Positions 31,186 to 50,248 are shown, counted from the first letter of the stretch. The stretch is 64,000 bases of DNA from Alphaproteobacteria bacterium (GCA_965214705.1 CBDCCI010000002.1:2624001-2688000), one strand, 5' to 3'. Made by a program: numbers and translations. The notes: a model not told the origin generated them from the sequence alone.

Positions 31186-31216
31186 GTTTTCGCTATCGCT
31201 CCTGCTTGGCTGCCGC

Positions 31217-32761: not shown

Positions 32762-32925
32762 GCTTTTCTCCTGCGCTTCGTGCTGCCGCATCCTAATCGC
32801 AGTGCCATGCGACCGCACCGGCTAACGTCGCGCTGCCGCGCCCGATTGAACGCCGGACGGCAGAGACGTAGACTCCCCGCCAGGCAGCGCCGGCTGAACG
32901 GCGTTCCAATGGAAGGGCACCGGCC

Positions 32926-33693
32926 ATGGCAACGGATGTGAGAGTAGTTACCCCGATCACCACCTGGGGTTTTCGGGACAGCTCCGAGTTTCGCGCCCTC
33001 GAAAGGCCCGACTTGACGATCAGTCATGTCGAGATCGAGACCGGACCGGCCTCGATCGAATGCGAATACGACGAGGCGCTTGCCGTCCCCGGAACGATCG
33101 CGAAGATCATCGAGGCCGAGCGTGACGGCTGCGACGCGGTCGTGATCGACTGCATGGGTGACCCCGGCATGCTGCCGGGACGCGAGTGCGTATCCATCCC
33201 CGTGATCGGGCCGTGCGAGGCGGCGATGCACGTGGCTTCGATGCTGGGTCACACCTTCAGCGTCGTCACGGTGCTCAAGCGCCTGCGCCCGCAGTTCGAG
33301 CATCAGGCGCAGCTCTATGGCGTGCGCGAAAAGCTCGCTTCGGTCCGTGCCGTTTCGATCCCAGTGCTGGAGCTGGAGCAGGATCTCGACCGTACCAAGG
33401 CGGCGCTTGCGGAGGAGGCGGTTCTGGCGGTCGAGGAGGACGGCGCGGATGCGATCATCTTCGGCTGCACCGGCATGCTGGGCTGCGCCGAGGCCGTACG
33501 CCGCGGCCTGCTCGCCAGGGGCTACGACGTGCCGGTGATCGACCCGGTGCCGTGGGCGGTCAAGCTCGCCGCGAGCCTGGTGGACGCCGGGCTCAGCCAC
33601 AGCAAGATCACCTACGAGCGCCCGCCGGCGAAGCCCGTGGTCGGCTACGAGATTCCACCGATGACGAGCCTCACCCGCGACGCCGCCGAGTAG
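32926..33693 (+). CDS. Hydantoin racemase (Asp/Glu/hydantoin racemase family)
   Basis: GPASIE, DAVVIDCMGDPG, IIFGCTGM, VPVIDP. Confidence 0.88.
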   Translation: MATDVRVVTPITTWGFRDSSEFRALERPDLTISHVEIETGPASIECEYDEALAVPGTIAKIIEAERDGCDAVVIDCMGDPGMLPGRECVSIPVIGPCEAAMHVASMLGHTFSVVTVLKRLRPQFEHQAQLYGVREKLASVRAVSIPVLELEQDLDRTKAALAEEAVLAVEEDGADAIIFGCTGMLGCAEAVRRGLLARGYDVPVIDPVPWAVKLAASLVDAGLSHSKITYERPPAKPVVGYEIPPMTSLTRDAAE

Positions 33694-34121: not shown

Positions 34122-36814
34122 CTACGGGTGCGGCACTTCCGGCGGTTTGTCCAGCCCATGCCGCTGTGCCACGGAGACGGCGAGGGCCCGCTTATTCACC
34201 CCCAGCTTGGCATAGATATTCTTCAAGTGAAATTTCACTGTTGGTTCCGAGAGCCCCAAGTGCCGGGCGATGCGCTTGTTCGAGTGACCTTGCGCAAGTT
34301 GTTCCATGACTTCCAGTTCACGTGAGCTGAGAATATGCGCTGCCTCTCCATGTTCCCCAGAGCGCATGTCAGACAACAATCGGGCGACGAATTCTACTTC
34401 AACCTCGCTCATGTCGCCGATCCCGGTGGTTCGAACGACTGCCTGCACCAATTGCGCCAGAAATCTACCCTCTTCGGCAAAGGAACCATAAAATCCGCAC
34501 GAGCTGCCTAGGGCGATAGCTTGCTTGAAGGGCTTGGCGGCGGCGCGACTGTCTCCGGATTCATGCAGCGCCATGGACTGCAGGATTAATCCCTTTACCC
34601 GGAAGCGAACCGCATTTGCTTCCTGGGACTTGCGAACCGCCTCGTTCAGTAACTCCACTGCATGGACGGCGTCGCCAAACCGAATGTGGTATCGGGCCAG
34701 GGAAAATGCCGCCATATAGAAGCCGCGCCAACACGCCCCGGCATCTCCTGCATCGGCGTGAGTCAGGCGATCGATATCCTGCAAAGTCAACTCGGCCAGA
34801 TCGGCCCGTTCCGCGCGGACAAACAGATCCAGCCGCTTGTAACAAATAAGGTGCTGAAGCCGGTGCATGTTTCGCCGCCTGATCGTCCGCTCCGCTTGAT
34901 CGAGTATCTCGGCCGCGGCCTCAAGGCCGCTGTTGGCATACGCCACCTCCATGGCCACTCGGCCGCGGCCTCAAGGCCGCTGTTGGCATACGCCACCTCC
35001 ATGGCCACCGTGTATCCCGGAACATAAAGCTCGCTCCACCCTTCCCTGACCTCGATATCGTGAAGCGAATTGAAAATACGCCGGCTGGCGGCCATTGGGT
35101 CGCCGCGTTCGAGATGGATTTCCGACAAGAGCACGGAAGCGATGCCCGCGAGCCCCCTGTCAGCGGGAAAATACCGCTCAGCCAGTTCTAGCGCCGTTGA
35201 CCTTCGTTTCTGGGCATCGGAGAGAAGACCTTCTTCAAGATCAATAATGCTAATGTTGATATGAATAAAGAACTGGAGATATTTAGCATCGAGATCCCGA
35301 TAGTAGGCCATGGACCTCTCGCCGGACAGTCTGGCATTCTTCAGATCGCCTGCCTGGATCTGCGTGACGCAAAGAATATTATGAAGAACTCCTCGAACGA
35401 GCGGTTCCGATTCTTGTGTCGATCGTATCAAACTCTCAAAGCGAGCAATATCTTCATCTGAAATCATCAGGTCTTCATAAATTCGGAGAAGCGCGCCGAT
35501 CAGCGTGATCTCGTCGGCCAGATCGCGATCGTCGGCTGCGCCTTGGGCGACGACTTCGTCGAAAAGCTTGGCGGCCTCAACGATCCGCCCTTCTTTCGCA
35601 AGGACGTAAGCAAAACACAACTTGGCGCGCGGACTGGCATGAACCGCATTCGTAGGAATATGATCCAGGAGAGATCGGAGATAACCCACACCCTGTCTTA
35701 TGCCGACTAGTACGCCGCCAGCGTTTTCGACATATCCTATCGCCCGCGCGTAAGCGTTTCCTGCCTTGGCGTGGTGCATAGCGGACTGGAGATCATCGGC
35801 AGCGAAGAACCAATCGGCAGCGCGTCGATGTAACGCATCGACATGCTCCCTGCCGAGATAAATCTGCTGTTGCCGCAAGAACTCCAGAAACAGTTGATGA
35901 TACCTGAACCACCCGTCTTCGGGAGCATCACTCCTCGAAATCAGGACGCCGGCCTTCCAAGTCTCGAGTAATTTCTCCCATCCGTCATTTCGCTCTCGAA
36001 CAGCATCTGCAAGATCGCCGTTCAAACGCTCCAGATGCGCCGTCTCCAGCAGAAATTGTTGTAGGTCTTCCGGAAGTTGTTTGAACACGCGTTCATTGAG
36101 ATAATCGGCCAACTCGGCCCGCGATCCGGACAGGCTGCTGACATGTCGCTCGAAGGGAACGCTGCCATTGTGGGTCAGGTGTGTCAGTTGAACCGCGACC
36201 GGCCACCCTTCGGTCCGCTCAATCAACTGCCTCGAAACCTGCTCGTCCAGCGGTTGATCGAACAGCACTCCTATGTCCGCTTCGCAGAATCTAAGGTCGT
36301 CGACCGTGATCTCGTGGACTTCACCTTGCAATCTCAATCCTGAGACCGGAATGCCCGAACGCTCTCTAGTTGCAATGACGATATGCAAGGTTTGTGGGCT
36401 GTTGTGGATAAGGTATTCGAAAAGCTCGAGGCATGCGCCGGTATCAGCGAAATGCGCGTCGTCTATGATCAGGCATGCCTCCACACCGCTTTCGCGCAAC
36501 AGCGTTGTCAACATCGAGAGGCGAGCAAGCGGCTCCGTATCGCCCGAAACGGAAGCGTGAACACCGAGGTCAGCCCTGGCCGCCTGTTCCAGGAGCGCGA
36601 TCAACGACGTCGGATCGCAATCGCGGCGTTCAATTTGAACCCAGGCCCAGGCAATACCGGAACTAGCTAACCTGGTGCGCAGCTGATTCAGTAGGGTCGT
36701 CTTGCCATATCCGGCCGGTGCGTCGATCAGCGTCAGACGCCGCCCAAGATTGTCCTGAATGCGGTCGAGGAGCGGTGTCCGTTCGATCAGTACGACCCTG
36801 TCCGGTAAAGCCAT
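34122..36814 (-). pseudogene. MalT-like STAND ATPase/LuxR regulator, frameshifted
   Basis: APAGYGKT, IIDDAH, TEGWP, WFRYHQLF; LuxR HTH LSSRELEV...SNKRIA...TVKFHLKNIYAKLGV lies in a second frame. Confidence 0.88.
34908..35007. repeat. Perfect 50-bp tandem duplication
   Basis: CTCGGCCGCGGCCTCAAGGCCGCTGTTGGCATACGCCACCTCCATGGCCA twice (34908-34957, 34958-35007). Confidence 0.95.
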
Positions 36815-37087: not shown

Positions 37088-37990
37088 CTAATAGTCGCGG
37101 AGTTCCGAGGCTTCGGTGGCGGCCTTGGCTCCGCCGCGCATCCGGCCGCTGATCCAGACGCCGAGTATCGTCGCTAGATAGGGCAGCGAGAGCAGCACGT
37201 CGTGCGGGATGCTCGCGCCGAAGAGAAGCTGCAGCCTGATTCCCGCGACGCCCACCAGGCTGAAGAACATCGCGGCGAAGGCAGCGGCGACGGGATGGCC
37301 CGCGCCGAAGATGACGGCAGCGAAGCTCATGAAGCCGCGTCCGGCGGTCATGTTCTGGGCGAAGATGGTGAGGCCGCCGGCCGCAAGCTCTGCCCCGCCG
37401 AGGGCGCAGAGGATGCCGCCGGCCGCCAGCGCGATGAGCCGCGCGGTGGCCGGACTGGTGCCCACGCTGCGTGCCGCCAGCGGGTGCTCGCCGGCAGCGG
37501 CCAGACGCAGGCCGAAGCGCGTGCGGCGCAGCAGCACCCACATGCCCCACACCACAAAAGGCATCATCAGAACGAAGATCGAGAGCGCACCGTAAGGGCC
37601 AAAGGCCGCGCCCAGCCGGGGCACGCCAAAAGGCGCGGTCACGGCCGCGAGGCTCCCGAAAAGGGCCTGCACCGCCAAGGCCGTCCCGCCGATCCCGAGC
37701 CCGGTGAGGCCGAGGCCTGCGATGATCGGGTTGGCGCCCAGCTTCTCGATCACGAACCAGAGCAGCACGGAGGCGGCGACGCAGAGCATGCAGGCGATGC
37801 CGATAGCGGCCGGAAACGAACCGGTCAGCACGATGCCGAGAATTGTCGCGCAGGCGCCGATGATCATCACGCCTTCGAGGCCGAGGTGCCAGACGCCGGC
37901 GCGCTGGGCGATGACACCCGCCATGGTGACGTAGACCAGGGGCGTACCAGAGCGCAGAATCGCCACCATGAACTCGTGGAACTCGGTCAT
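37088..37990 (-). CDS. Nucleoside/sugar-type ABC permease
   Basis: AGVWHLGLEG, TRFGLRLAAAGEHP, TAGRGF. Confidence 0.9.
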   Translation of the reverse strand: MTEFHEFMVAILRSGTPLVYVTMAGVIAQRAGVWHLGLEGVMIIGACATILGIVLTGSFPAAIGIACMLCVAASVLLWFVIEKLGANPIIAGLGLTGLGIGGTALAVQALFGSLAAVTAPFGVPRLGAAFGPYGALSIFVLMMPFVVWGMWVLLRRTRFGLRLAAAGEHPLAARSVGTSPATARLIALAAGGILCALGGAELAAGGLTIFAQNMTAGRGFMSFAAVIFGAGHPVAAAFAAMFFSLVGVAGIRLQLLFGASIPHDVLLSLPYLATILGVWISGRMRGGAKAATEASELRDY

Positions 37991-39033
37991 GTTGGCAGCC
38001 TGGCGGCCCGCAGGAGGCGGTCCAACAGCCCCGATTTCGCAGTGATGAAGAGCGCGACCGAGGCGTTGAAGATGTCGATGGCGGCGGCTGGCAATCCGGC
38101 CAGAATTGGCAGGTAGAGCGCGGCCGACGCGAGGCCGCCGAAGAACATGCTGACGACCGCCGTCGCGAGCACCGAAAGGTTGGCGACCAGCGCAATGAGC
38201 ACCGCAGTGAAGCCGTGGCCGGGCAGAAATCCGCTCGCGATGCGCCCGGTCGGGCCGAGAAGCTCGATGGTGCCAGCGAGCCCGGCCAGTCCGCCGCTGA
38301 TGAGGAAGCTCGAAAGGCCCAGGGTCCAGAGCCGCGCGCCCTGAAAGCGCACCATTGTCGGGTTGCGCCCGGCGAGGCTCGCCAGCATGCCGAAAGGCGT
38401 ACGGTTGACCAGCACCCACATGGCGAGCGCGACGGCAGCGGCAATGCCGATGATGGCGGGCGAGATGCCCTGTGAATCGCTGATGCGATAGACCGCCGGC
38501 AGCAGCGGGCTCGCCGCCTGCTGCCCGGTGCCGGAGGGGTCCTTGAGCGGACCCGAGGTGACGTAGACCAGCACGAGGGCTGCGATGAAGTTGCCCATCA
38601 GCGTCGTGATGACCTCGTCGGTACCGGAGCGAAGCCGCAAGTATCCCGGCCAGAGCGCCCAGAGCGCGCCCCCCGCCATGCCGGCGAGAAAGGTCGCCGG
38701 CAGCACGAGGGCGGCCGGGCCGCCGCCGAGCAGGTCGGTGACGAAGGCAGCGCAGATGGCGCCCACATAGAACTGGCCCTGCGCACCGATATTGAAGAAG
38801 CCGCAGCGGAATGAGATTGCGACGCCGGTCGCGGTGATGAAGAGCGGGAGCGCCCAGCGCAGGCTCTGCGTCCAGCCGCCCGCCCGCAAGAAGGCGCCCT
38901 CGACGACGCTCTCGAGCATCAGGAGCGCCGAGTAGCCAGCGAGCTCGAAGACGATGCCGCAGAGCGCGAGCGCGAGAACGATGAAGGCGAGCGTGCGGAT
39001 TACCGCGCCTGCGCGGATGCGGATGCCGCTCAT
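37987..39033 (-). CDS. Nucleoside/sugar-type ABC permease
   Basis: FRCGFFNIGAQGQ, DEVITTLMGN, GHGFTAV. Confidence 0.9.
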   Translation of the reverse strand: MSGIRIRAGAVIRTLAFIVLALALCGIVFELAGYSALLMLESVVEGAFLRAGGWTQSLRWALPLFITATGVAISFRCGFFNIGAQGQFYVGAICAAFVTDLLGGGPAALVLPATFLAGMAGGALWALWPGYLRLRSGTDEVITTLMGNFIAALVLVYVTSGPLKDPSGTGQQAASPLLPAVYRISDSQGISPAIIGIAAAVALAMWVLVNRTPFGMLASLAGRNPTMVRFQGARLWTLGLSSFLISGGLAGLAGTIELLGPTGRIASGFLPGHGFTAVLIALVANLSVLATAVVSMFFGGLASAALYLPILAGLPAAAIDIFNASVALFITAKSGLLDRLLRAARLPT

Positions 39034-40610
39034 TCGACCGCTCCGGTCATGGCGCGGCCCACCGAGGCGATGTCGTAGGGCGGAACGAACTCGGCGACAA
39101 TGCGGCCTGAGAGCATGACCACCAGGCGGTGGCTGACGTCGAACAGCTCGTCGAGGTCAGAGGAGATCAGCAACACGCCGCAGCCTCGTCCGGCCGCCTC
39201 GCGCAGCGCCGACCAGACAAAGGCGGTGGCACCGATATCGAGCCCGCGCGCGGGCTGCGCGGCGACGATGAGGCGCGCGTCTTCGTCGATCTCGCGCGCG
39301 AGGATCACCTTCTGCGCGTTGCCGCCAGAAAGCGCGCCGGCGTTCTGTGCCGCCGACGCATAGTGCACACCCCAGGCTTGGAGCGCCTCGTCGCAGCGCC
39401 TGCGCTGGGCGGCCGGGTCGACGAAACTGAACAACGGCCTTTGCATCAGATCGCGAACGGACCAGTTCTCCCACAGCGCGCTGGTGAGGCTGAGGCCCTC
39501 GCTGTTGCGCTCGAAGGGGATGACGCGCAAGCCCAGCGCGCGACGGGCGGCGGGGCTCGTGCGGCTCGCACGCGTTCCACCCAGGTGGAGTTCGCCACCG
39601 GTCACGTCGGTAAGTCCGGCGATCGCCTTCACCAGAGTCCCCTGGCCGTTGCCCTGAACTCCGGCGACGCCGACGATCTCCCCCGGCCGGACCGCGAGGG
39701 AAACCCGGTCGAGCGGCGGTTCCTCGGGCTCCTTCGCCGTGCTCACGTCGGCGAGTTTGAGCACCGCCTCGCTGGCGGAGGGCTTCGCCGCGGTGGGACC
39801 ATGGTGAGCGGCGGCGCTTCGAACCGGCGCCGCCCCGACTAGCGTCTGTGTATCGTCGGCGCCAACGGCGCCCACGGCGGCTTGGCCGACGATCATCTCG
39901 GCGATGCGCTTCTCGTCCGCCCGCTCGCGTGGGATCGGTCCGGCGACCAGCTTGCCTCCGCGAAGGACGGAGATCGTGTCCGCCACCGCCATGACTTCGC
40001 GGATCTTGTGCAGGATCAGGATCACCGTGACCCCGTGCCGCTTGAGGCTGCGGATACGCTCGAAAAGGGCTTCGATGCCGACGGGCGGGAGCACTGCCGT
40101 CGGCTCGTCCAGAATGAGCAGCCTGGCGTCGGTGACCAGCGCGCGAGCGATCTCCACTCCCTGCTGCACCTCGACCGGCAGGTCGCGGATGCGCCGGCGA
40201 GGGTCGACATTGAGATCGAGGGCCGCGAGCCGTTCGCGGCATCGCTTCAAGATTTGCCGACGGCTGTAGAGGCCAATGCCACCGCCCGCGCCGAACTCCA
40301 GCGCCTCCGCCACGGTGAAGGAGGGCGGCAGCGCGAAGCTCTGGTGCACGAGCTCGACGCCCGCCGCGCGCGCGCCGGCCACACGGCCGAGACGCAACGC
40401 GCGCCCCTCGATAGCAAGGGTCCCTGCGTCGGGGCGGACGAGCCCGGCCGCGACACGGGCAAATGTCGTCTTGCCGGCGCCGTTCTGGCCGACCACGGCG
40501 TGTATCGCGCCGCGCGCGAAGGCGATTTCGAGATCGGCGAGCGCCGTCACCTCGCCGTATGTGACGCGAATCCCACGGCAACGGAGGGCCGGCGGGTCCG
40601 CGGCGGCCAT
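39030..40610 (-). CDS. Nucleoside-type ABC ATP-binding protein (two NBDs)
   Basis: GQNGAGKT, ILDEPTAVL, GVQGNGQ, LSGGNAQK, QPARGLD. Start position approximate. Confidence 0.9.
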   Translation of the reverse strand: MAAADPPALRCRGIRVTYGEVTALADLEIAFARGAIHAVVGQNGAGKTTFARVAAGLVRPDAGTLAIEGRALRLGRVAGARAAGVELVHQSFALPPSFTVAEALEFGAGGGIGLYSRRQILKRCRERLAALDLNVDPRRRIRDLPVEVQQGVEIARALVTDARLLILDEPTAVLPPVGIEALFERIRSLKRHGVTVILILHKIREVMAVADTISVLRGGKLVAGPIPRERADEKRIAEMIVGQAAVGAVGADDTQTLVGAAPVRSAAAHHGPTAAKPSASEAVLKLADVSTAKEPEEPPLDRVSLAVRPGEIVGVAGVQGNGQGTLVKAIAGLTDVTGGELHLGGTRASRTSPAARRALGLRVIPFERNSEGLSLTSALWENWSVRDLMQRPLFSFVDPAAQRRRCDEALQAWGVHYASAAQNAGALSGGNAQKVILAREIDEDARLIVAAQPARGLDIGATAFVWSALREAAGRGCGVLLISSDLDELFDVSHRLVVMLSGRIVAEFVPPYDIASVGRAMTGAVE

Positions 40611-40645
40611 CTGTTCCGAGAGCGCCTCCTGATCAGGGCGTACCT

Positions 40646-41719
40646 TCAGAGCTCCGTGTTGAACGGCACTTGGACCGATCCATCGAGGATGCCCGCCCGC
40701 GCCGCCTCGACCGCGGGCCACGCCTGGTCGGACCGCGCGACGATAGCCGCCGGCCCCTGCTCTCGATAGAGCGGCGAGCGGAGGAAGTCGATGACGCCGC
40801 TGCCGAGGCCCGTCGGGACATGCCGCCCGCCCTGCCACTCGGCGGCCAGCGCCGCGCTGGTCTCGTTATGGAGAGACTGGCCGAAGTCGAGGCTGACCAC
40901 CCCGATCACGGAGGCGGGCCCGAGCGGGTACTGGGCCGGATCGAGTGCGCTGACCATGGCGCCCTCGCGCTCGTTGGCCGCCTGGATAATGCCGCCGTCG
41001 GTCGCGGCGGAATCGGTCTGGATGTAGTCGATCCCGTCCAGGAACATCTGGCTCGCGATCTCGTAGCCCTTGGCCGGGTCCTGGAAGGAGCCCGCGAAGG
41101 CGGCGGTAACGCTGGCGTCCGGGTTGACCGCGTGCACGCCTGCCTTGAGCGCGTTGTAGTCGGCATTGATCGGCGGAATGCTGATGCCGCCGATGAAGCC
41201 GATCTGCTTCGATTGCGAGACGTGCGCGGCGAAGATGCCCGACAGATAGCAGCCGAGATAGTAGTCGTAGGAGACCGTCACCAGGTTTCCGATCGGCGGG
41301 TCGACGGCGTCGCCGAAGAGCTGGATCCACTTGGTATCGGGGTAGATCGGGGCCACCGCCTTGAAGGCCTCGGAGATGACCGGGAAGGTCCCGAGCACGA
41401 TGGAGGCACCCGCATCGCCAAGGGTGCGCAGCACGGTCTCGTAAGTCGCCGGGTCCTGGGCATAGATCGTGCGGGTCTCGAAGCCTTGCGCCTCCGAGAA
41501 TTGGTTGAGCCGGCCCATCATGGAATCGATGGGGCCGCTGTCGCCGGCCGCCTGGGTGTGAACCAGAGCGACGAGGCCTGCGCCCGCACGCGCGGCAAAG
41601 GGCAGCGCAACACTCGCGCCGACGACCGCAGAAACGCCGGCGGTCGCCGCCAGGAACCTGCGGCGGCTGAGGCGCGCAAACGGTGCGCCTGGACCAATCG
41701 CATTCGGCTTGTTCGACAT
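40646..41719 (-). CDS. BMP/PnrA-family nucleoside-binding protein, Tat signal
   Basis: SRRRFLA, GDSGPID, IGFIGGISIP, GSFQDPAKG. Confidence 0.85.
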   Translation of the reverse strand: MSNKPNAIGPGAPFARLSRRRFLAATAGVSAVVGASVALPFAARAGAGLVALVHTQAAGDSGPIDSMMGRLNQFSEAQGFETRTIYAQDPATYETVLRTLGDAGASIVLGTFPVISEAFKAVAPIYPDTKWIQLFGDAVDPPIGNLVTVSYDYYLGCYLSGIFAAHVSQSKQIGFIGGISIPPINADYNALKAGVHAVNPDASVTAAFAGSFQDPAKGYEIASQMFLDGIDYIQTDSAATDGGIIQAANEREGAMVSALDPAQYPLGPASVIGVVSLDFGQSLHNETSAALAAEWQGGRHVPTGLGSGVIDFLRSPLYREQGPAAIVARSDQAWPAVEAARAGILDGSVQVPFNTEL

Positions 41720-41796
41720 GGCGTTTTTCCTCCTCTCCCACGGGCGCCCGTTGCGCCCGGTTGGCATTCGTGGGCAGGCCCCCATCGGCGGACCGT

Positions 41797-42123
41797 TCAA
41801 TCGGCGATGGGCGGTGAGCAGGGCGCCGGGTTCATCACCATCACGTCCTGCTCCTGGATCGCGTCGAGCGCCCAGACCGACTGGATGAAGGCCTGCCATG
41901 CGGGGTCCGCGCCCATCGCGGCGCGGCGCTGCTCGCGGTCGGCCAGGCTCTGGTAGGCCCAGATCAGGACAATCCGATGCAGCCGGCCGATCTCGGAGAC
42001 GTAGAGCCCGACGAAGCGGCCGAGATGGCGCCTCTGGATCGGCAGGCCTTCCGCCTCGTACTTCTTGAGCCAGCCATCCACTGTGCCGGGACGAAACGTG
42101 TAGGTGCGATGCTCGACGATCAT
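41797..42123 (-). CDS. NIPSNAP-family protein
   Basis: MIVEHRTY...EIGRLHRIVLIWAYQSLADREQRRAAM..DPAW. Confidence 0.9.
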   Translation of the reverse strand: MIVEHRTYTFRPGTVDGWLKKYEAEGLPIQRRHLGRFVGLYVSEIGRLHRIVLIWAYQSLADREQRRAAMGADPAWQAFIQSVWALDAIQEQDVMVMNPAPCSPPIAD

Positions 42124-43781
42124 TCCTGGGTCCCCTCCAGCGGCGCATGGGCTTCGCCCACGCCGAGAATGAACTCGGCCGCCTTCTCGCCGATCATGAT
42201 GGCGGGCGCGTTGGTGTTGCCGCTGACGATGACCGGCATGACCGAGGCGTCGGCGACCCTGAGCCCGGCGATACCGTGGACGGCGAGTCGGGCGTCCACC
42301 ACGGCCATCGGGTCCCCTCCCATGCGGCAGGTGCCGACGGGATGAAAGGTCGTCATGGCGTTGGCCCGGAGCCACGCGGTGAGGTCGGTATCGCTCTGCA
42401 CCGCCGCGCCAGGCGCAAGCTCGGGGCCGCGGTAGGCGTCGAAGGCCGGCTGTGCGATCACATCACGAACCATGCGGATGCCCGCGATCGTCGTGCGGCA
42501 GTCGGCCTCGCTTTGCAGATAGTTGGGCTGAATCAGCGGCGCGTCGGCGGGATTGGCGGAGCGCAGGCCGATCCAGCCCCGGCTCTCAGGATTGAGCGGT
42601 CCCACGCGCAGGCTGAAGCCGTGGGAATCCTCCAGCGGTGCCTTCCGGAACGGATTGGGGACGTGCAGGTTCGCCGCGCTTTCCAGCGCCGGCATGAAGT
42701 GCACCTGGATGTCCGGCGCCACCTTCTCCGCCCGGCTCTTGAGGAAAGCGCCGGCTTCGTATGGGAAGGTGGTCGCGACGCCGCGGCCGAACAGCATCCC
42801 CTCCGCCACCGAGCGGATGAGCCTGTCGGCGCGCAAGTCCCGGTAGAGGGTAATGGACTTGGTGCAGGCATAGGCGAGGACGCAATCGACGTGGTCCTGC
42901 AAGTTGCGTCCGACGCCGGGAAGTTCGTGCACCACCGAGATGCCGTGCCGCTTGAGCACGTCACCGGGCCCGATCCCCGAGAGCATGAGGAGCTGGGGCG
43001 AGTTGACGGTGCCGGCGCAAAGGATGACCTCACGCTCGGCGCGGATGGTCCGCGCACCGGCCTGCTGCGCGACCTCGATCCCGGTGGCGCGGGCTCCCTC
43101 CACGCTCACGCGGTGCACCAGGCTATTGGTTAGAATCGCCAGATTGCGCCGATGTCGGATCGGGTTGAGGAAGGCGGTGGAGGCTGAGCAGCGCCTGCCC
43201 CGCCTGATGGTGAAGTCGTATCGGCCGACGCCTTCTTGCTCGTCGGCCCCGTTGAAGTCGTCGTTGACGGGATGACCCGCTTGGCGGCCCGCCTCGACGA
43301 ATGCGTCGAAAAGCGGATTGACGCCGCGCGCGCGGCAGACCGTGAGCTCGCCTTCCGTCCCGTGGTAGGCCCCATCCCGCTCCAGGTGCCCTTCGGAGCG
43401 GCAGAAAGCCGGCAGGACCTCGTCGTAGGACCATCCTGGGAGACCCATTTGCGCCCAGCGATCGTAGTCGTGGCGATTGCCGCGCACGTAGATCATGCCG
43501 TTGATGGTGGACGAGCCGCCGAGCACCTTGCCGCGCGGCCAGTAGAGCGAGCGGCCCTCCAGGCTATGTACCGGCTCGGTGTGATAGCGCCAGTTGTAGA
43601 TGCCCGAGTGGAACAGCTTGCCCATCAGCATGGGCAGGCGAAACAGGGGGTTGCGGTCCTTCCCGCCGGCCTCGATCAGCAGCACCGAGCGGTCGGGATC
43701 TGCCGAGAGCCGGTTGGCGAGCACGCAACCGGCAGAGCCTGCGCCCACGACGATGTAGTCGTATGACCGATTGCGGGGCAT
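42120..43781 (-). CDS. GMC oxidoreductase (choline dehydrogenase-like)
   Basis: YDYIVVGAGSAG, RGKVLGGSSTING, NSPQLLMLSGIG, HPVGTCRMG, GNTNAP. Confidence 0.93.
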   Translation of the reverse strand: MPRNRSYDYIVVGAGSAGCVLANRLSADPDRSVLLIEAGGKDRNPLFRLPMLMGKLFHSGIYNWRYHTEPVHSLEGRSLYWPRGKVLGGSSTINGMIYVRGNRHDYDRWAQMGLPGWSYDEVLPAFCRSEGHLERDGAYHGTEGELTVCRARGVNPLFDAFVEAGRQAGHPVNDDFNGADEQEGVGRYDFTIRRGRRCSASTAFLNPIRHRRNLAILTNSLVHRVSVEGARATGIEVAQQAGARTIRAEREVILCAGTVNSPQLLMLSGIGPGDVLKRHGISVVHELPGVGRNLQDHVDCVLAYACTKSITLYRDLRADRLIRSVAEGMLFGRGVATTFPYEAGAFLKSRAEKVAPDIQVHFMPALESAANLHVPNPFRKAPLEDSHGFSLRVGPLNPESRGWIGLRSANPADAPLIQPNYLQSEADCRTTIAGIRMVRDVIAQPAFDAYRGPELAPGAAVQSDTDLTAWLRANAMTTFHPVGTCRMGGDPMAVVDARLAVHGIAGLRVADASVMPVIVSGNTNAPAIMIGEKAAEFILGVGEAHAPLEGTQE

Positions 43782-43784
43782 CTG

Positions 43785-44630
43785 TTACCAGTCCACCGCA
43801 GCCGCGCCCATCGCCTTGAGACGCTGGTTGCAGAGCGTGAACGGATTCTCTTGCCCGAGGACCTCGTCGGCTGCCGCCGGATGCGGGCGGAGGATGAGGC
43901 GCTCGTCGCCTGCGTCGGACCCGTTTAGCCCCGCCGCGCTGAGCGTCTCCGCCGCCGCGTCGCCGAAGCCCAGGAAAACGACCGGCGTTCTTCTCCGCGC
44001 GAGATGGTCGAGCACCCGAGCCATCAACGGCCGCCAGAGCGGCAGATGCCCCCGCGCCTGATGCGGATCGCCCGCGCGCTGGAAGCGGGTCAGCGTGAGC
44101 GAGGCGTTGAGGAGCAGCGCGCCGGACCTCACCCAGCGATCGGCAAGGTCCGCAGGCTCTTCAAGCTCGACTGCGCCGTCCTCGATAGCCGCCAGTGTTG
44201 CCGGCCATTGCGCGAAGCTGCGGGCGTAATCCGCCTCCCCGGTCCGGGCGGCCACGATGAGCTGAACGACCGCACGCACGCTGGGGGAGAACATCTTGTC
44301 GAGCTCCCGCCAGCGAGCGACGTTGCCGGCTTCGAAGGCCCGTCCGGTGGCGAAGGCGGGGCAGGGATAGGGGTCCTGGCCCAGGATCACGCAGCGCACG
44401 TCCTCCGGCGCGACCCCGTCGAAGGCGCGGAACATGTGTGCGCCCGCCGGAGCACCCGGAAGGGTCCGGCCTCGCCGGGCGGGAAAGATCGGCTCCCAGG
44501 GTCCAAGCTCTAGCGTGGCGTCAACCTGCTCGAAGCCCAGCGCGACATCGGTGATGACGTCGCGCCAAGGGGACGCGATGTCTTCCTGCCAGCCCTCGAG
44601 CGTCTCCCGGAGCGCCGCCCTCAGTTGCAT
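43785..44630 (-). CDS. Family-1 uracil-DNA glycosylase-fold protein with divergent motif B
   Basis: VILGQDPYP, GRAF, SPSV, LLLNASLT, HPAAAD, terminal VDW. Start 44630 preferred because the 44678 ATG lies inside the operator. Confidence 0.85.
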   Translation of the reverse strand: MQLRAALRETLEGWQEDIASPWRDVITDVALGFEQVDATLELGPWEPIFPARRGRTLPGAPAGAHMFRAFDGVAPEDVRCVILGQDPYPCPAFATGRAFEAGNVARWRELDKMFSPSVRAVVQLIVAARTGEADYARSFAQWPATLAAIEDGAVELEEPADLADRWVRSGALLLNASLTLTRFQRAGDPHQARGHLPLWRPLMARVLDHLARRRTPVVFLGFGDAAAETLSAAGLNGSDAGDERLILRPHPAAADEVLGQENPFTLCNQRLKAMGAAAVDW

Positions 44631-44670
44631 CGCTACCGGCTCCGCTCGCCTCGCCTGAATCGGAAAAACC

Positions 44671-44718
44671 TGACACATGTGTCATGTTTCACGATCCATC
44701 AACCTGACATGCGCGTCA
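44671..44718. promoter_or_regulatory. Two TGAC-N6-GTCA palindromes (putative operators of the RutR-like regulator)
   Basis: TGACACATGTGTCA (44671-44684, perfect) and TGACATGCGCGTCA (44705-44718) in the divergent intergenic region. Same half-sites and spacing as the E. coli RutR box TTGACCANNTGGTCAA. Confidence 0.7.
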
Positions 44719-44809
44719 AGTATTTTGTGCCCCTCCAGCCTGAATGTGGGGCTAGACTGCGAGCGGCGCTGCCGATGGACCTCGTCGGCGAGCAGTGCAG
44801 GGGACGAAA

Positions 44810-45472
44810 ATGGCGAAGGCAGTGCGTGCGGGCGAACGGAAGGAAACGCCGGAGCTGCGTATCCGGGCCCGGAACGAGGAGAAAATCCTACGCGCCGCCG
44901 TCGGCCTCTTTGCCGACAAGAGCTTTCACGGCACCCATATCAAGGAAATCGCGAGGGTTTGCGGCCTGCCGAAGACGAATGTCTATTACTACTTCCCCAC
45001 CAAGGAGAGCATCTATACGGCGGTGATCGAGCGGCTGATCGAGGGCTGGGACCGCGCCTTCGAGCATATCGTGCCCGAGCGCGAACCACGCGAGGCCATC
45101 GCTGCCTATATTCGTGCAAAGCTCGAGTATTCCCGCCGCCACACCACCGAATCCCGCTTCTTTGCCAACGAGATTTTGCGCGGCGCACAGTTTCTGGAAC
45201 GGCGCCAGCGCCAGCATATCCGCGAGGTCACCGACCAGCGCGCCCACGTGGTGGAGGAATGGATCAGGCGGGGACACATGGCGCCGGTGGACCCGCGCCA
45301 CTTCTTCATCATGCTGTGGTCCGCGACCCAGTTCTACGCGGATTTCGGAATGCTGGCCGCCGACGTGCTCGGGCGGCGACGGCTCACGAGGACGGACTTC
45401 GACGCTGCGGCCGAGACCATGACCAAGGTCATCCTGGACGGATGCTGCGGCCCAGCCGCATCGTCGCAATGA
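44810..45472 (+). CDS. RutR-like TetR-family regulator
   Basis: HTH ILRAAVGLFA...NVYYYFPTKE; C-terminus YIRAKLEYSR...SRFFANEILRGA...WSATQFYADF. Confidence 0.88.
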   Translation: MAKAVRAGERKETPELRIRARNEEKILRAAVGLFADKSFHGTHIKEIARVCGLPKTNVYYYFPTKESIYTAVIERLIEGWDRAFEHIVPEREPREAIAAYIRAKLEYSRRHTTESRFFANEILRGAQFLERRQRQHIREVTDQRAHVVEEWIRRGHMAPVDPRHFFIMLWSATQFYADFGMLAADVLGRRRLTRTDFDAAAETMTKVILDGCCGPAASSQ

Positions 45473-46160: not shown

Positions 46161-47518
46161 CATATGCGCTAACTTGTTTGCGGTTCTTCGATGAAGCGTT
46201 CCGCGGTTTGGGTCAGGCGCCGTCGGGACGGTTCGGAGAGGGATTTGGAGATCTGGTTCCATTGGTCGATCACCTCGGCGAGGGACAAATGGGGTTCGAT
46301 GGCTCGCACGCCCTGGTTGAGCATGAACCTGAAGTCACGCCAGGCGCTGTGCGGCCGGCAGCGCCTCCAGGCTGTATCCCCAGGGGGAAACCGTGCCGGC
46401 ATGACGGATCAGCTTTTCCACCAGCAGCGCCACCAGGAGTTTGCCGTAGAGCCACGCCTTGGCGCTCTCGTCGTCGTATTTGGGCAGATGCCCCAACTGC
46501 GCCAGAGACTTGAAGCGCTTGAAGACCAGTTCGACCTGCCAGCGGGTGCGATACCACTCCAGGACCTGCGCCGCGCTGAAGGCCGCTTCGGGAAAGGTCG
46601 TGAACACGATGACGTAGCGCGCGAACTCCAGGGTTCGCGGCCGAACCTGCTTGCCCTTGCGCCCGGCCTCCTTGCGCAGCTTGCGCTGCGCCAGCCTGAT
46701 GGCTTCCTGCGTCTTTCTGATCGCGCACACGCGCCCCGGCACCGCGATGCCGTCGCCGACCGCCAGCACGGGCCAGGATCGCACGCTGCCGACCCGCTTC
46801 AGCGTCGTGACGTGTGCAAGCAGGTCGAACGGCGCGCCGTCGCGCGTTCGAAGCGACAGCGACCCGGTGTTCACGCGCACGGTGACGTGACCCCCCGCAG
46901 ACACCACGTGGTGGAGGCCCGCAGCAGTCGAGTACGCCCGGTCGGCGAGCACAAAGTCGCCCTCGCCGACCGGGAACTGCGAGAACGCCTCGCCCGTGCC
47001 CCGTCCCTCGCTCGCCGTGAGCTTGAAGAAGTCGCACGCCAGCGACGGAAGGCGCACGCTGTAGTGCAGGCGCCACAGCGCCCCGGTCCGGCCCGGCTCC
47101 TTCACCGTCGTCGCGTCGAAGGCCCTGACCTGGAACCCGCCAGCGGCCGACATCGCCATCCCCTGTTCGCGAAACAGCGCGACGCACAACGCGTGAAGCC
47201 AATCCCCCGACTTCCTCAGCCGCTTCAACAAGGCCACGTCGGACAGATCGGCCAGGTTCGCCTTCCTCGCACGCACCACGGTCTCGCGCAGCGAGTGTCC
47301 GCAGGCCAGATGCAGCAACAGCGTGCGCAGCAGGGCATCGACCGACTTGTCCTTGCGCAGACCCTTCAAGGCCCCGGTCTCCCGTGCCAACTCCCGCCAG
47401 CCCTCGGGCAGAAACAACGACACCACTTCCCACTCCTCGTCCATCCGCCAAGCCTCCCCGCAGCGCGCACCAACCCACAATACGGAGTGCCGACATGACA
47501 AACAAGTTAGCGCTTATG
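46161..47518 (-). mobile_element. IS4-family insertion sequence
   Basis: 20-bp IR CATA(T/A)GCGCTAACTTGTTTG; no clean TSD seen. Confidence 0.82.
46335..47444 (-). CDS. IS4-family transposase
   Basis: AFDATT, LADRAY, YRTRWQVELVFKRFKS. Confidence 0.9.
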   Translation of the reverse strand: MDEEWEVVSLFLPEGWRELARETGALKGLRKDKSVDALLRTLLLHLACGHSLRETVVRARKANLADLSDVALLKRLRKSGDWLHALCVALFREQGMAMSAAGGFQVRAFDATTVKEPGRTGALWRLHYSVRLPSLACDFFKLTASEGRGTGEAFSQFPVGEGDFVLADRAYSTAAGLHHVVSAGGHVTVRVNTGSLSLRTRDGAPFDLLAHVTTLKRVGSVRSWPVLAVGDGIAVPGRVCAIRKTQEAIRLAQRKLRKEAGRKGKQVRPRTLEFARYVIVFTTFPEAAFSAAQVLEWYRTRWQVELVFKRFKSLAQLGHLPKYDDESAKAWLYGKLLVALLVEKLIRHAGTVSPWGYSLEALPAAQRLA

Positions 47519-47543: not shown

Positions 47544-48221
47544 TCAGGCCGTGTCGAGGCCCGCCTGCCAGAACGCGGCCTCCAGCCGGGTCGCGGTGCG
47601 GAAGGTCTCGGCAAGCTGCGCGAAGCGTCCGGCGCCGCCGCGTCGCGCTGCAAGCGCATCCAGTGCCTCGATCTCGGCACACATGAACGCCTGGTACTGA
47701 TCGCCAGCATACATTTCGATCCAGGGGCCGTAGGGATTGCCCGCGCCATGCGCCCCAGGCTCGGCCGCAAGGCGGGCGCCGATCTCGCCGTAGCCGATGA
47801 CGCAGGGCGCCAGCGCCACGCGCAGGTCGAGCAGGTCGCCCGCCAGCCCGCGCTCCAGCACGTAAGCCGTATAGGCGAGGGTCGCACCATCGGCCTCGAC
47901 CGCTTCCAGGTCGGCCTCCACGATCCCCCAGTCGGCGCAGTAGGCCCGGTGCAGGTCCATCTCCACCTCGACCAGCGCCTTGAGGCCGTCGGACGCCGCG
48001 CGGATCTCGGCCAGCGTGTCCGCCTTGTATGCGGCGAGCCCATAGGCGCGGGCGAACTGGATCAGGAACAGGTAATCCTGGACCAGGTAGTGGCGGAACG
48101 CGGCCTCCGGCAGGGTGCCGTCGCTGAGGCCCTGCACGAAGGGATGCTCGACATACGCCTGCCAGTCGTCCCCGGCGGCCTCGCGCAGAGCAGCGAAGAA
48201 GCCCGTCTCCGCCTCCGTCAT
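47544..48221 (-). CDS. tenA: Thiaminase II / TenA
   Basis: HPFV, FRHYLVQDYLFL, ALAPCVIGYGEIG, WIEMY, LEAAFW. Confidence 0.9.
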   Translation of the reverse strand: MTEAETGFFAALREAAGDDWQAYVEHPFVQGLSDGTLPEAAFRHYLVQDYLFLIQFARAYGLAAYKADTLAEIRAASDGLKALVEVEMDLHRAYCADWGIVEADLEAVEADGATLAYTAYVLERGLAGDLLDLRVALAPCVIGYGEIGARLAAEPGAHGAGNPYGPWIEMYAGDQYQAFMCAEIEALDALAARRGGAGRFAQLAETFRTATRLEAAFWQAGLDTA

Positions 48222-48270
48222 CGTCGAACGTCCCGCCTGGCCTGCGTGGGATGGGGCGCCGGGCACTCCA

Positions 48271-48611: not shown

Positions 48612-49766
48612 CTATCCTGCGGCGGCCGAGACGCCGGCCTTCCAGCGGTTGGTGAGGCCCGCATAGAGCGCCCGCCAGGCGCCCAGGAAGCGCTCGACCT
48701 CGTCCTCGGTCGTGGCCCACCCCAGGCTGACCCGGATGGCACAGCCGCCCACCGCGTCCGGCGCACCGAGCGCGCGCAGCACATGACTGGGCTCCACCTT
48801 GCCCGAGGAGCAGGCGGAGCCAGCGCTCACCGCGACGCCCGCGAGATCGAGGCCCATGACCTGCGTTTCGCTCTGCACGCCCGGCATGGTGAGGCAGCTG
48901 GTGTTGGGCAGGCGCGACGCTCCTTCGCTGAAGATGACGACATCGGGCTCGGTCTCGCGCAGCCGCGCCTCCAGCCGGTCGCGCAGGGCTGCGATCTCGC
49001 CTGCCCGCGCGAGGTCGTCACGGGCAAGGGCGGCTGCCGCGCCGAAGCCGACGATTCCGGCGGCGTTCTCGGTGCCGCCGCGCAGACCCCGCTCCTGCCC
49101 GCCGCCGGTGACGAGCGGCGCGATGTCTAGGCCTGAGCGCACGATCAGCGCGCCGATCCCCTTGGGGCCGGCGAACTTGTGGGCGGCGATGCTCATCATG
49201 TCCACGCCAAGCCCGGCGAAGGAGACCGGAATCCGGCCCGGCGCCTGCACCGCATCGCAATGCACCAGCGCGCCCGCCACCTTGGCTCGTGACGCGATCT
49301 CGGCCACTGGCTGGATCACGCCGGTCTCGTTGTTCGCCAGCATGACCGAGACCAGCGCCTCCGGCCCGTGCGCCGCCAGCGCGCCGTCGAGTGCTGCCAT
49401 GTCCAGCACGCCGTCGCCATCCACCGGGAGCACGACGAGGTCGTCCGCCACCGCCTCGGCCGTGCGCAGGATCGCCGGATGCTCGATGGCGCTGACGATC
49501 AGCGCCCGTCGGCCGGCGCCGCGCAGCGCGGTGTTGTTGGCCTCGGTGCCGCCTGCGGTGAAGACCAGCTCCGCCGGGGTGCAGTCGACCAGCGCCGCGA
49601 TCTGCTCGCGCGCGTCCTCGATGCGCTTGCGCACGTCGCGGCCGAAGCCGTGCACCGACGACGGGTTGCCGGCCAGCATCATCGCCTCGGCCACCGCCTC
49701 CACCACCTGCGGTTTGATCGGCGCCGTGGCGTTGTAGTCGAGATAGATCGGGCCCGAACTGCTCAT
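48612..49766 (-). CDS. iscS: Cysteine desulfurase (IscS/NifS group I)
   Basis: YLDYNAT, GNPSS, NNETG, AHKFAGPKG, SAGSACSSG. Confidence 0.88.
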   Translation of the reverse strand: MSSSGPIYLDYNATAPIKPQVVEAVAEAMMLAGNPSSVHGFGRDVRKRIEDAREQIAALVDCTPAELVFTAGGTEANNTALRGAGRRALIVSAIEHPAILRTAEAVADDLVVLPVDGDGVLDMAALDGALAAHGPEALVSVMLANNETGVIQPVAEIASRAKVAGALVHCDAVQAPGRIPVSFAGLGVDMMSIAAHKFAGPKGIGALIVRSGLDIAPLVTGGGQERGLRGGTENAAGIVGFGAAAALARDDLARAGEIAALRDRLEARLRETEPDVVIFSEGASRLPNTSCLTMPGVQSETQVMGLDLAGVAVSAGSACSSGKVEPSHVLRALGAPDAVGGCAIRVSLGWATTEDEVERFLGAWRALYAGLTNRWKAGVSAAAG

Positions 49767-50248
49767 TCCGCCGCCTGCTCCACGAGCCCGCGCCCGTGGC
49801 TCGAGAGCCGGTGGCTCATGCCGAGCACCCGGCGCGCACAGACGTCTTCGAGAGAGACCGCGCTGAGAAAGCCGTGAATGTGGAGACCCAGCTCGTCCCA
49901 CAGATCGTGGGTGACGCAGCGCTTCGCGTCTTTCATGCAGCCCTGCCCCGTGTTCGGCGGGCAGCGCGTGGCGCGCAGGTTCTCGTCCACCGCGACGACG
50001 ATGTCCACGATCCGGAGCTCCGCCGCGGGCCGCGCGAGCCGGTAGCCGCCGCCCGGCCCGCGTGCGCTCCGCACCAGGCCCGCGCGGCGCAGGCGGCCGA
50101 ATAGCTGCTCCAGATAGGACTGGGAGATTTCCTGTCGCGCGGCAATCTCGGCGAGCGTCACGGGCTTGGCCTCGCTCGCGCCGCCCGAGCGCATCGCCAG
50201 CTCCACCATCGCCATCACCGCGTAGCGGCCCTTGGTGCCGAGCTTCAC
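49763..50248 (-). CDS. iscR: Rrf2-family Fe-S regulator IscR
   Basis: TKGRYAV, SYLEQLF, RGPGGGY, three C-terminal Cys and THDLW. Confidence 0.88.
   Translation of the reverse strand: MKLGTKGRYAVMAMVELAMRSGGASEAKPVTLAEIAARQEISQSYLEQLFGRLRRAGLVRSARGPGGGYRLARPAAELRIVDIVVAVDENLRATRCPPNTGQGCMKDAKRCVTHDLWDELGLHIHGFLSAVSLEDVCARRVLGMSHRLSSHGRGLVEQAAE

Follow-up and report, generated by a model that had tools for sequence, protein, structure and literature searches.

The gene at positions 43785 to 44630 (minus strand) of the 64,000-nucleotide stretch of alphaproteobacterial DNA analyzed here (the window; GCA_965214705.1, CBDCCI010000002.1:2624001-2688000) encodes a 281-amino-acid protein with a predicted uracil-DNA glycosylase (UDG) fold, which we call UDGL. 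It heads an operon encoding a GMC flavin oxidoreductase, a NIPSNAP-domain protein, and a BMP-type ABC transporter, opposite a RutR-family TetR regulator. Judged by its sequence, UDGL belongs to a distinct subfamily related to family-1 UDG (UNG), with the catalytic set and a uracil-shaped pocket in place and the element that wedges into duplex DNA gone. On balance, we lean toward the reading that UDGL is a small-molecule N-glycosidase in an undescribed pyrimidine-nucleoside pathway.

A divergent relative of family-1 UNG with an altered motif B

The proteins of the window were scored against Pfam and NCBIfam profiles with curated cut-offs. UDGL reached 18.8 bits (E = 0.0019) with the Pfam UDG model, under its cut-off of 24.3 bits. 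The nearest NCBIfam models are family-1 ung equivalogs, and scores fell far under their cut-offs (TIGR00628 ung, 72.2 versus 185.75 bits; NF003592, 76.6 versus 162 bits). Sequence matches among solved structures were to family-1 UNGs only, the best at an E value of 2e-12. When the UDGL profile was aligned by hhalign with nine canonical UNGs extracted from the sampled genomes, the match had a probability of 99.9% (E = 6.7e-35). An AlphaFold2 model built from a 52-member alignment (pLDDT, 96.3; pTM, 0.93) was searched against the PDB with Foldseek, and the top 40 or more hits were family-1 UNGs at E values near 1e-10 and with target-normalized TM scores of at most 0.74. The UDG assignment made in a preliminary description of this locus lies under the profile cut-offs, yet it is confirmed by the profile-profile match and by the modeled fold, which is that of family-1 UNG. 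In public records, genes of this kind are called "hypothetical protein" or "uracil-DNA glycosylase family protein," the ESM Atlas giving only automatic "UDG family" names.

UDGL contains the motifs GQDPYP, ATGRAFE, GALLLN, and HPAAAD, as had been read from the sequence at the outset (there as GQDPYP, GRAF, LLLN, and HPAAAD). Residue conservation was assessed in an alignment of 52 diverse relatives sharing 30 to 70% identity. Invariant positions are G84, P87, T95, G96, F99, N175, H195, W199, P201, and P251, and D86, Y88, E100, S117, and H250 are at least 90% conserved. UDGL retains the set that forms the uracil pocket and activates water, namely Gln85, Asp86, Tyr88, Phe99, Asn175, and His250. 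A set of closer orthologues was drawn from one genome per species, where 100 of 274 candidate stretches proved to code for a relative; the 80 loci retained share 53 to 85% identity. GQDPYP is present as motif A in at least 77 of these 80 orthologues. Motif B reads HPAxA(D/E) in 72, which places an acidic residue within it, and HPSPLS occurs in none, compared with 12 of 12 canonical UNGs from the sampled genomes. In the profile-profile alignment, the Leu-intercalation loop is shortened and variable. The earlier claim that the glycosylase pocket was kept while HPSPLS was replaced therefore holds, since the uracil-pocket residues are conserved and the Leu loop is lost family-wide. The operon-linked subfamily also has invariant basic residues, K112, R119, and R97, placed near S117 by the alignment. 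Its members have a median net charge of -8 (pI 5.25) versus -1 for the nine canonical UNGs, a difference to which we attach little weight.

UDGL shares with family-1 UNG, besides its fold, the GQDPY motif, the stacking Phe, the Ser of the PPS loop, QGVLLLN, the Trp of GWE, the His-Pro of motif B, and the C-terminal N..L..G..PIxW pattern. It differs in having Pro in place of the His that follows GQDPY, HPAxA(D/E) in place of HPSPLS, a shorter Leu loop, an unconserved Ser in the GS loop, and insertions of about 11 and about 25 residues, and, unlike family-1 UNG, it sits in a transport and catabolic operon. The sole solved chain to align in one stretch across the insert region (query residues 79 to 242) is the Nitratifractor salsuginis UNG (5X3G), which is also among the top fold matches. 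It is only about 20% identical to UDGL and is a DNA glycosylase by its PDB title. We take it to be an unconventional family-1 UNG with DNA glycosylase biochemistry, and we know of no operon link for it.

A second point of comparison is BdiUng (Blr0248) of Bradyrhizobium diazoefficiens. Like UDGL, it has a motif A of UNG type but no classical motif B, and its host, also an alphaproteobacterium, lacks family-1 Ung (PMC5449639). It is reported there to be insensitive to Ugi, to have a family-4-like overall fold, and to act on single-stranded DNA (ssDNA) as a glycosylase for uracil (U), 5-hydroxymethyluracil (5-hmU, or hmU), and xanthine. BdiUng was considered as the closest relative and rejected: unlike UDGL, it carries GQDPA (Ala for Tyr) and YVMVN, and it is not among the PDB sequence matches of UDGL. 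A phage origin of the operon-linked subfamily was likewise rejected, as viral matches are mostly canonical UNG-like, with 25 to 31% identity over residues about 60 to 281; the viral scan with UDGL gave one full-length match, at 33% identity.

Among 8000 candidates scored, 903 relatives were found at E values of 1e-3 or lower, and the 120 matches listed are 74 to 99% identical to UDGL. A library of representatives at 50% identity yielded 88 clusters at E values of 1e-30 or lower and about 240 at 1e-10 or lower. Hosts of the 80 loci are spread over Alpha-, Beta-, and Gammaproteobacteria (Rhizobiales, Rhodobacterales, Rhodospirillales, Variovorax, and Gammaproteobacteria) and comprise Mesorhizobium, Rhizobium, Pararhizobium, Hoeflea, Paracoccaceae, metagenome-assembled genomes of Rhodospirillales, Variovorax, and two Gammaproteobacteria. 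The family is rare, and its distribution is patchy. Of 401 genomes sampled evenly across the phylum, 2 held a true member, the source genome and one other. The other 25 matches in that sample covered part of the profile only (E values of 1e-16 to 1e-19), and 17 of them were inspected, of which 12 were canonical UNGs and 5 lacked GQDPY/GKDPY.

UDGL is the first gene of a conserved operon

Open reading frame (ORF) and profile calls in the window place seven closely packed genes on the minus strand between 37088 and 44630, with the TetR gene divergent on the plus strand at 44795 to 45472. From its first ATG, the UDGL ORF would run from 43785 to 44678 and encode 297 amino acids; the start at 44630 is likely because homologues are 281 to 284 amino acids long. 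Three nucleotides separate the UDGL stop (43785) from the ATG (43781) of the next gene, which encodes a 553-amino-acid, BetA-like GMC flavin oxidoreductase (42120 to 43781; GMC_oxred_N, 189 bits; GMC_oxred_C, 132 bits). The stop of this gene overlaps by 4 nucleotides the start (42123) of the gene for the 108-amino-acid NIPSNAP-domain protein (41797 to 42123; PF07978, 101 bits). The transporter genes follow on the same strand: a 358-amino-acid periplasmic binding protein of the BMP/PnrA family (40646 to 41722; PF02608, 128 bits), a 511-amino-acid ATPase with two ATP-binding domains (39030 to 40565; ABC_tran), the start of which was picked so as to fall past the end of the binding-protein gene, and ABC permeases 1 (37987 to 39033) and 2 (37088 to 37993), both BPD_transp_2 proteins. 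The layout given in the preliminary description, with its 3-nucleotide gap, GMC/NIPSNAP overlap, and divergent RutR-like TetR gene, is all in the sequence, and the domains are confirmed by Pfam and NCBIfam.

To count neighbors, the eight proteins of the window were searched by tblastn against the 80 loci, which come from related species and are not independent trials. The GMC gene lies directly downstream of UDGL in 77 of 80 loci, with a spacing of 2 to 5 nucleotides in 61 of 76. NIPSNAP was found in 73 loci, the BMP protein in 71, the ATPase likewise in 71, and the two permeases in 70 and 69; in 65 loci, a TetR gene diverges within 700 bp. Where enough DNA was available on both sides, the complete eight-gene layout was present in 61 of 69 loci, across three classes and down to 53% identity. 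Departures from the layout were a UDGL gene standing alone (L018), a locus without the transporter (L020), two in which NIPSNAP was undetected (L024 and L027), three in which the TetR gene was more distant or an insertion was present (L031, L081, and L085), and a gammaproteobacterial variant (L084). The recurrence of this arrangement is far beyond chance.

Clustering of all ORFs of the loci revealed frequent extra members. Downstream of the second permease, a TRZ/ATZ-type amidohydrolase/deaminase is encoded in 39 of 80 loci, its gene overlapping the permease stop in L028, and a RihA-like pyrimidine nucleoside hydrolase in 21. A metagenomic locus with 58% identity (L123) combines RihA, a TetR gene divergent from UDGL, GMC, thymidine phosphorylase, BMP, an ABC transporter, and a deaminase. 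Both gammaproteobacterial loci (L080 and L084) are without the ABC system. In L084, the annotated one of the two, UDGL-GMC, NIPSNAP, and TetR are found among genes for an NCS1 nucleobase-type permease, a TonB-dependent receptor, a C-N hydrolase, dihydropyrimidinase (601 bits), methylmalonate-semialdehyde dehydrogenase, and thymidine phosphorylase (609 bits), both scores being above the cut-off. The variant loci connect UDGL, GMC, and NIPSNAP as a trio with the catabolism of pyrimidine nucleosides and bases. Lack of a conserved catabolic neighborhood had been named in the preliminary description as evidence that would refute it; such a neighborhood is present, as judged by the GMC gene, the full operon with TetR, and the pyrimidine-catabolic genes of the variants.

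The same gammaproteobacterial locus encodes, between its NCS1 permease and dihydropyrimidinase genes (L084:5915-6976, minus strand), a luciferase-like (F420-class) oxidoreductase that matches TIGR03842 at 484 bits, above cut-off. No classical dihydropyrimidine dehydrogenase was seen in the annotated stretch of L084.

A RutR-like regulator with an altered pocket and a double operator

The divergent intergenic region of 164 bp holds two palindromic boxes, predicted operator box 1 (TGACACATGTGTCA, 44671 to 44684) and, 34 bp from it, predicted operator box 2 (TGACATGCGCGTCA, 44705 to 44718). Both have the TGAC-N6-GTCA geometry of the Escherichia coli RutR operator, or RUT box, a 16-bp palindrome printed as TTGACCANNTGGTGAA (PMC2952853). 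Of the 66 divergent intergenic regions of orthologous loci, 65 contain the pattern, mostly as a pair of boxes with the same 34-bp spacing. It occurs 3 times in the window compared with 0.55 expected by chance, and nowhere in the 7.9-Mb genome other than the operon site is there a double box. The third, single palindrome of the window (TGACGAGCTCGTCA, 62726 to 62739) may be due to chance or may be another RutR-family site.

The regulator has 225 amino acids (TetR_N PF00440, 46 bits; TetR_C_3 PF08362, 144.7 bits) and aligns with E. coli RutR structures at an E value of 6e-40. It falls under both RutR equivalog cut-offs (TIGR03613, 171.3 versus 368 bits; NF011584, 148.3 versus 230 bits), with RutR still its nearest match. 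In RutR, L74, W77, and W167 are reported to bind uracil, while L78 clashes with the 5-methyl group of thymine and the L78A substitution admits thymine (PMC4325133). According to the same report, E. coli RutR senses uracil and excludes thymine, so that the preliminary description was too broad in taking the sensing of uracil/thymine by RutR as established.

These pocket positions were compared in 75 operon-linked regulators, that of the window included. RutR W77 is kept in 74 and W167 in 73, and L74 is Ile or Leu in 73, while L78 is replaced by Asp in 72; the two cases with Ile at this position belong to the gammaproteobacterial variant. In the window's regulator, the corresponding residues are Trp85, Trp175, and, at the Leu78 position, Asp86. 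Because the uracil-stacking Trp pair is kept, the effector is probably a uracil-like ring. A carboxylate facing C5 of the ligand would fit a polar C5 substituent, and the idea of a hydroxymethyl group there gains indirect support because the Asp at the RutR Leu78 position would face C5. Set beside its closest known counterparts, E. coli RutR with its RUT box and PydR, the regulator shares TetR_C_3, the Trp pair W77 and W167, and the palindromic TGAC-N6-GTCA operator. It differs in scoring under the equivalog cut-off, in the Leu78-to-Asp change, in being local, with a single double operator in the genome, and in controlling no rut genes here.

The transporter, the GMC enzyme, and the NIPSNAP protein

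The binding protein begins with a twin-arginine-like N terminus (RRRFLAATAG), and its best solved relative is Borrelia BmpA (9Q1U; E = 2.3e-23), which is reported to prefer thymidine (PMC13325309). Ligand contacts in BmpA are an aromatic sandwich and ribose-binding Asp/Lys residues (F27, F176, D98, D225, and K242); Phe176 and Asp225 have counterparts in the binding protein, as judged with a manually derived numbering offset. The operon has the binding-protein family and the ATPase plus two-permease architecture of the BMP/PnrA nucleoside importers (BmpA, BmpD, TmpC, and pneumococcal PnrA). PDB matches within the BMP family include atrazine-binding entries and others without a named ligand, and because of these we regard a nucleoside ligand as likely rather than certain. 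For the same reason, the earlier statement that BMP/PnrA systems import nucleosides was too broad to stand as established. Among NCBIfam models, the transporter components came closest to "putative B6 ABC transporter" families, with every score far under its cut-off.

The GMC enzyme passes NF002550 (665.7 versus 605 bits) and fails the betA equivalog TIGR01810 (562 versus 732.1 bits). Its best PDB match is 9lq0, an oxygen-dependent choline dehydrogenase (E = 7e-136), and further solved relatives are a chloramphenicol-oxidizing enzyme and alcohol oxidases, with pyridoxine 4-oxidase and 5-(hydroxymethyl)furfural (HMF) oxidase lower in the list. GMC relatives in the PDB, mostly named alcohol oxidases or dehydrogenases, act on primary alcohols. 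The NIPSNAP protein matched only structural-genomics entries without a stated function.

Other uracil-DNA glycosylases in carrier genomes

No family-1 ung was found in the source genome, where TIGR00628 matched the UDGL gene alone (36 and 35 bits); in this the source resembles B. diazoefficiens. The genome (G000, L001 to L004) does encode a family-4 UDG above cut-off, a weak second family-4/5-like gene, a MUG-like gene, and an unclassified UDG-superfamily gene. The preliminary description had asked about a separate housekeeping UDG, and the result is divided: family-4 and MUG-like UDGs are present, and a family-1 ung is not. Of five other UDGL carriers, two have a canonical ung above cut-off, the Variovorax of L047 and the Rhizobium of L036, and it is absent in three. 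The notion that UDGL is a mere replacement for a missing Ung was rejected, given the two carriers with a canonical ung.

Proposed function and alternative explanations

In the pathway that we propose, an operon under RutR-type repression would import a pyrimidine nucleoside-like compound through the BMP-type ABC system, and three coupled proteins, UDGL, the GMC flavoenzyme, and the NIPSNAP protein, would process it in the cytoplasm. UDGL, presumably descended from a family-1 UDG, would act as an N-glycosidic hydrolase on a free uracil-type nucleoside, or on an oxidized or phosphorylated derivative of one, and not on a base in duplex DNA. The GMC enzyme would oxidize a primary alcohol in this substrate or in the product; both a 5-hydroxymethyl group carried by the base and the sugar's 5'-CH2OH are candidates. 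The freed pyrimidine would induce the operon via the RutR-like repressor and then enter general pyrimidine catabolism or salvage. A more speculative order would have the GMC enzyme act first and make a nucleoside 5'-carboxylate that mimics phosphate and is bound by Ser117 and the nearby basic residues.

Several observations weigh against this proposal. The catalytic set of UDGL is exactly that of the DNA glycosylases, and DNA or nucleotides may still be its substrates because the phosphate-loop Ser of PPS (S117) is at least 90% conserved. RihA and DeoA (thymidine phosphorylase), present in many of the operons, already cleave nucleosides, so that a further glycosidase looks redundant unless the substrates differ. 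The binding protein is distant from BmpA (E = 2e-23): the Lys242 that contacts ribose in BmpA is Leu, the equivalent of Asp98 is uncertain, and the region of the N-terminal aromatic residue Phe27 did not align. Distant family members (28 to 42% identity) mostly lack the operon, and some lie in plasmid or mobile settings; their contexts are heterogeneous and give no single functional hint. The conserved gate Tyr of GQDPY would argue against 5-substituted bases in particular. Finally, BdiUng, without the classical motif B, still acts on DNA (PMC5449639), and the 5X3G protein is likewise a UNG by its PDB title.

The alternative that fares best is that UDGL is still a DNA or ssDNA glycosylase, a guardian induced together with the operon that removes U or 5-hmU incorporated by mistake when nucleoside feeding raises the pools of dUTP or hmdUTP. 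Conservation of the UNG catalytic residues, the base-pocket residues, and the PPS-loop Ser is as expected for such an enzyme, as are the UNG fold and the precedent of BdiUng, which excises U, hmU, and xanthine from ssDNA in spite of lacking the classical motif B. Family-1 ung is missing from the source genome and from three of the five other carriers, and some distant homologues are on plasmid-like DNA. In UDGL, however, the Leu wedge is missing and motif B has a conserved Asp/Glu, and the orthologues are acidic. Repair also does not explain readily the leading position of UDGL in the operon, its translational coupling to GMC in 61 of 76 loci, or why orthologues of at least 53% identity almost never occur without GMC. 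Moreover, canonical ung coexists with UDGL in two of the five genomes, and the source genome has its family-4 UDG and MUG-like gene. We consider a guardian role possible but rather unlikely.

Less likely again is that UDGL is a nucleotide N-glycosidase acting on dUMP or 5-hydroxymethyl-dUMP, which would detoxify phosphorylated analogues by yielding deoxyribose-5-phosphate and a base that the GMC enzyme oxidizes. Such a role would be analogous to that of DNPH1. It would account for the conserved phosphate-contact residue S117 with invariant K112, R119, and R97 nearby, for the kept uracil pocket, and for the thymidine-type context (the BmpA-like binding protein, and DeoA in the variant loci), but the operon is without a kinase, and the closeness of the basic residues to the active site is predicted from the alignment alone. 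That the operon instead handles a non-nucleoside heterocycle, such as vitamin B6 or a thiamine-pyrimidine/hydroxymethylpyrimidine compound, with UDGL as a ligand-binding or other non-glycosidase component, seems very improbable: the sub-threshold "putative B6 ABC transporter" matches, pyridoxine 4-oxidase among the PDB matches of the GMC enzyme, the atrazine-binding and ligand-unnamed BMP entries, and a TenA/THI-4 gene 2 kb away past a transposase point that way, but the regulator retains both uracil-stacking Trp residues, RihA, DeoA, and dihydropyrimidinase genes join the variant loci, the TenA neighbor is not among the conserved neighbor clusters, and the catalytic Asp and His of UDGL are conserved.

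For the small-molecule N-glycosidase, our leading candidate substrate is 5-hydroxymethyl-2'-deoxyuridine (5-hmdU) or 5-hmU, which we put forward tentatively. It is suggested by the thymidine-preferring BmpA relative, by DeoA and methylmalonate-semialdehyde dehydrogenase in variant loci, by the Leu78-to-Asp change in the regulator, and by the alcohol-oxidase type of the GMC enzyme. Our caution is due to the conserved gate Tyr: Tyr at this position is reported to disfavor 5-hmU in EcoUng and in the A59Y variant of BdiUng, which loses hmU activity (PMC5449639). Caenorhabditis elegans UNG-1, on the other hand, repairs 5-hmU according to the title of the report (PMC5931555). A functional analogy is offered by fungal thymidine salvage, in which thymine-7-hydroxylase and iso-orotate decarboxylase take part and 5-hydroxymethyluracil is converted to 5-formyl- and then 5-carboxyuracil (PMC4787775). 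The analogy is of function only, the oxidation there relying on an Fe/2-oxoglutarate dioxygenase versus a GMC flavoenzyme here, and no decarboxylase was identified in the operon.

Neighboring genes and distant homologues

Directly downstream of the operon, where many species have RihA and deaminase genes, the window encodes a MalT-like STAND/AAA regulator (34787 to 36814, minus strand; NF003420, 206 bits, aligned to positions 16 to 562 of the 903-position model) in a stretch of lower G+C content (0.56 versus about 0.67). On the other side, a DDE transposase gene (46335 to 47501, minus strand) adjoins the TetR gene and is followed by a TenA/THI-4/PQQC-family gene (47544 to 48266, minus strand; thiamine-pyrimidine salvage type) and then a class-V aminotransferase gene (48612 to 49901). 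Nothing of this transposase/TenA neighborhood is among the conserved neighbor clusters of the UDGL loci. Farther away, genes for a DUF917/S-Me-THD-like protein (30082 to 31416), a hydantoinase/oxoprolinase (31217 to 32818), and an Asp/Glu/hydantoin racemase (32926 to 33693) lie beside an ABC transporter, and this cluster (30082 to 33693) may be another cyclic-amide catabolic module.

Among distant homologues, one with 40% identity (L119:7915-10849) directly follows a gene for another type of GMC oxidoreductase, 581 amino acids long and low in score, near genes for amidohydrolase-domain and DJ-1/HAD/hemerythrin multidomain proteins; this would be a second, independent GMC-UDGL pairing. Two others with about 30% identity (L126:8012-12370 and L127:5838-10646) are found on plasmid-like DNA amid ArdC-type anti-restriction, resolvase, DUF5131, and RepA genes, and these may still act on DNA.

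Implications

A search of full-text literature, with subscription journals and supplementary files outside its scope, found no published description of the UDGL subfamily, its operon, or a UDG-like metabolic enzyme. To our knowledge, UDG-superfamily enzymes are known only in nucleic-acid repair, editing, or defense. In its fullest form, our proposal is that UDGL is the first enzyme of the superfamily with a non-nucleic-acid substrate and that, together with GMC and NIPSNAP, it scavenges a C5-modified uracil nucleoside whose base is sensed by a RutR paralogue through the Leu78-to-Asp change. We regard this version as plausible but somewhat short of probable; the scavenged nucleoside could be 5-hydroxymethyl-deoxyuridine from hmU-rich or damaged DNA.

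If a conserved UDG subfamily does serve nutrient uptake, it would clearly exemplify the recruitment of a DNA-repair enzyme to small-molecule metabolism, and such a role, if true, would add a function of a new kind to the UDG superfamily. It would also fill in a bacterial route for modified pyrimidine nucleosides that has been missing so far and provide a first clue to what NIPSNAP proteins do in bacteria. The operon also supplies what appears to be a natural RutR variant with altered ligand specificity. For the annotation of these genomes, "uracil-DNA glycosylase family protein" labels on UDGL genes should not be taken as evidence of repair capacity.

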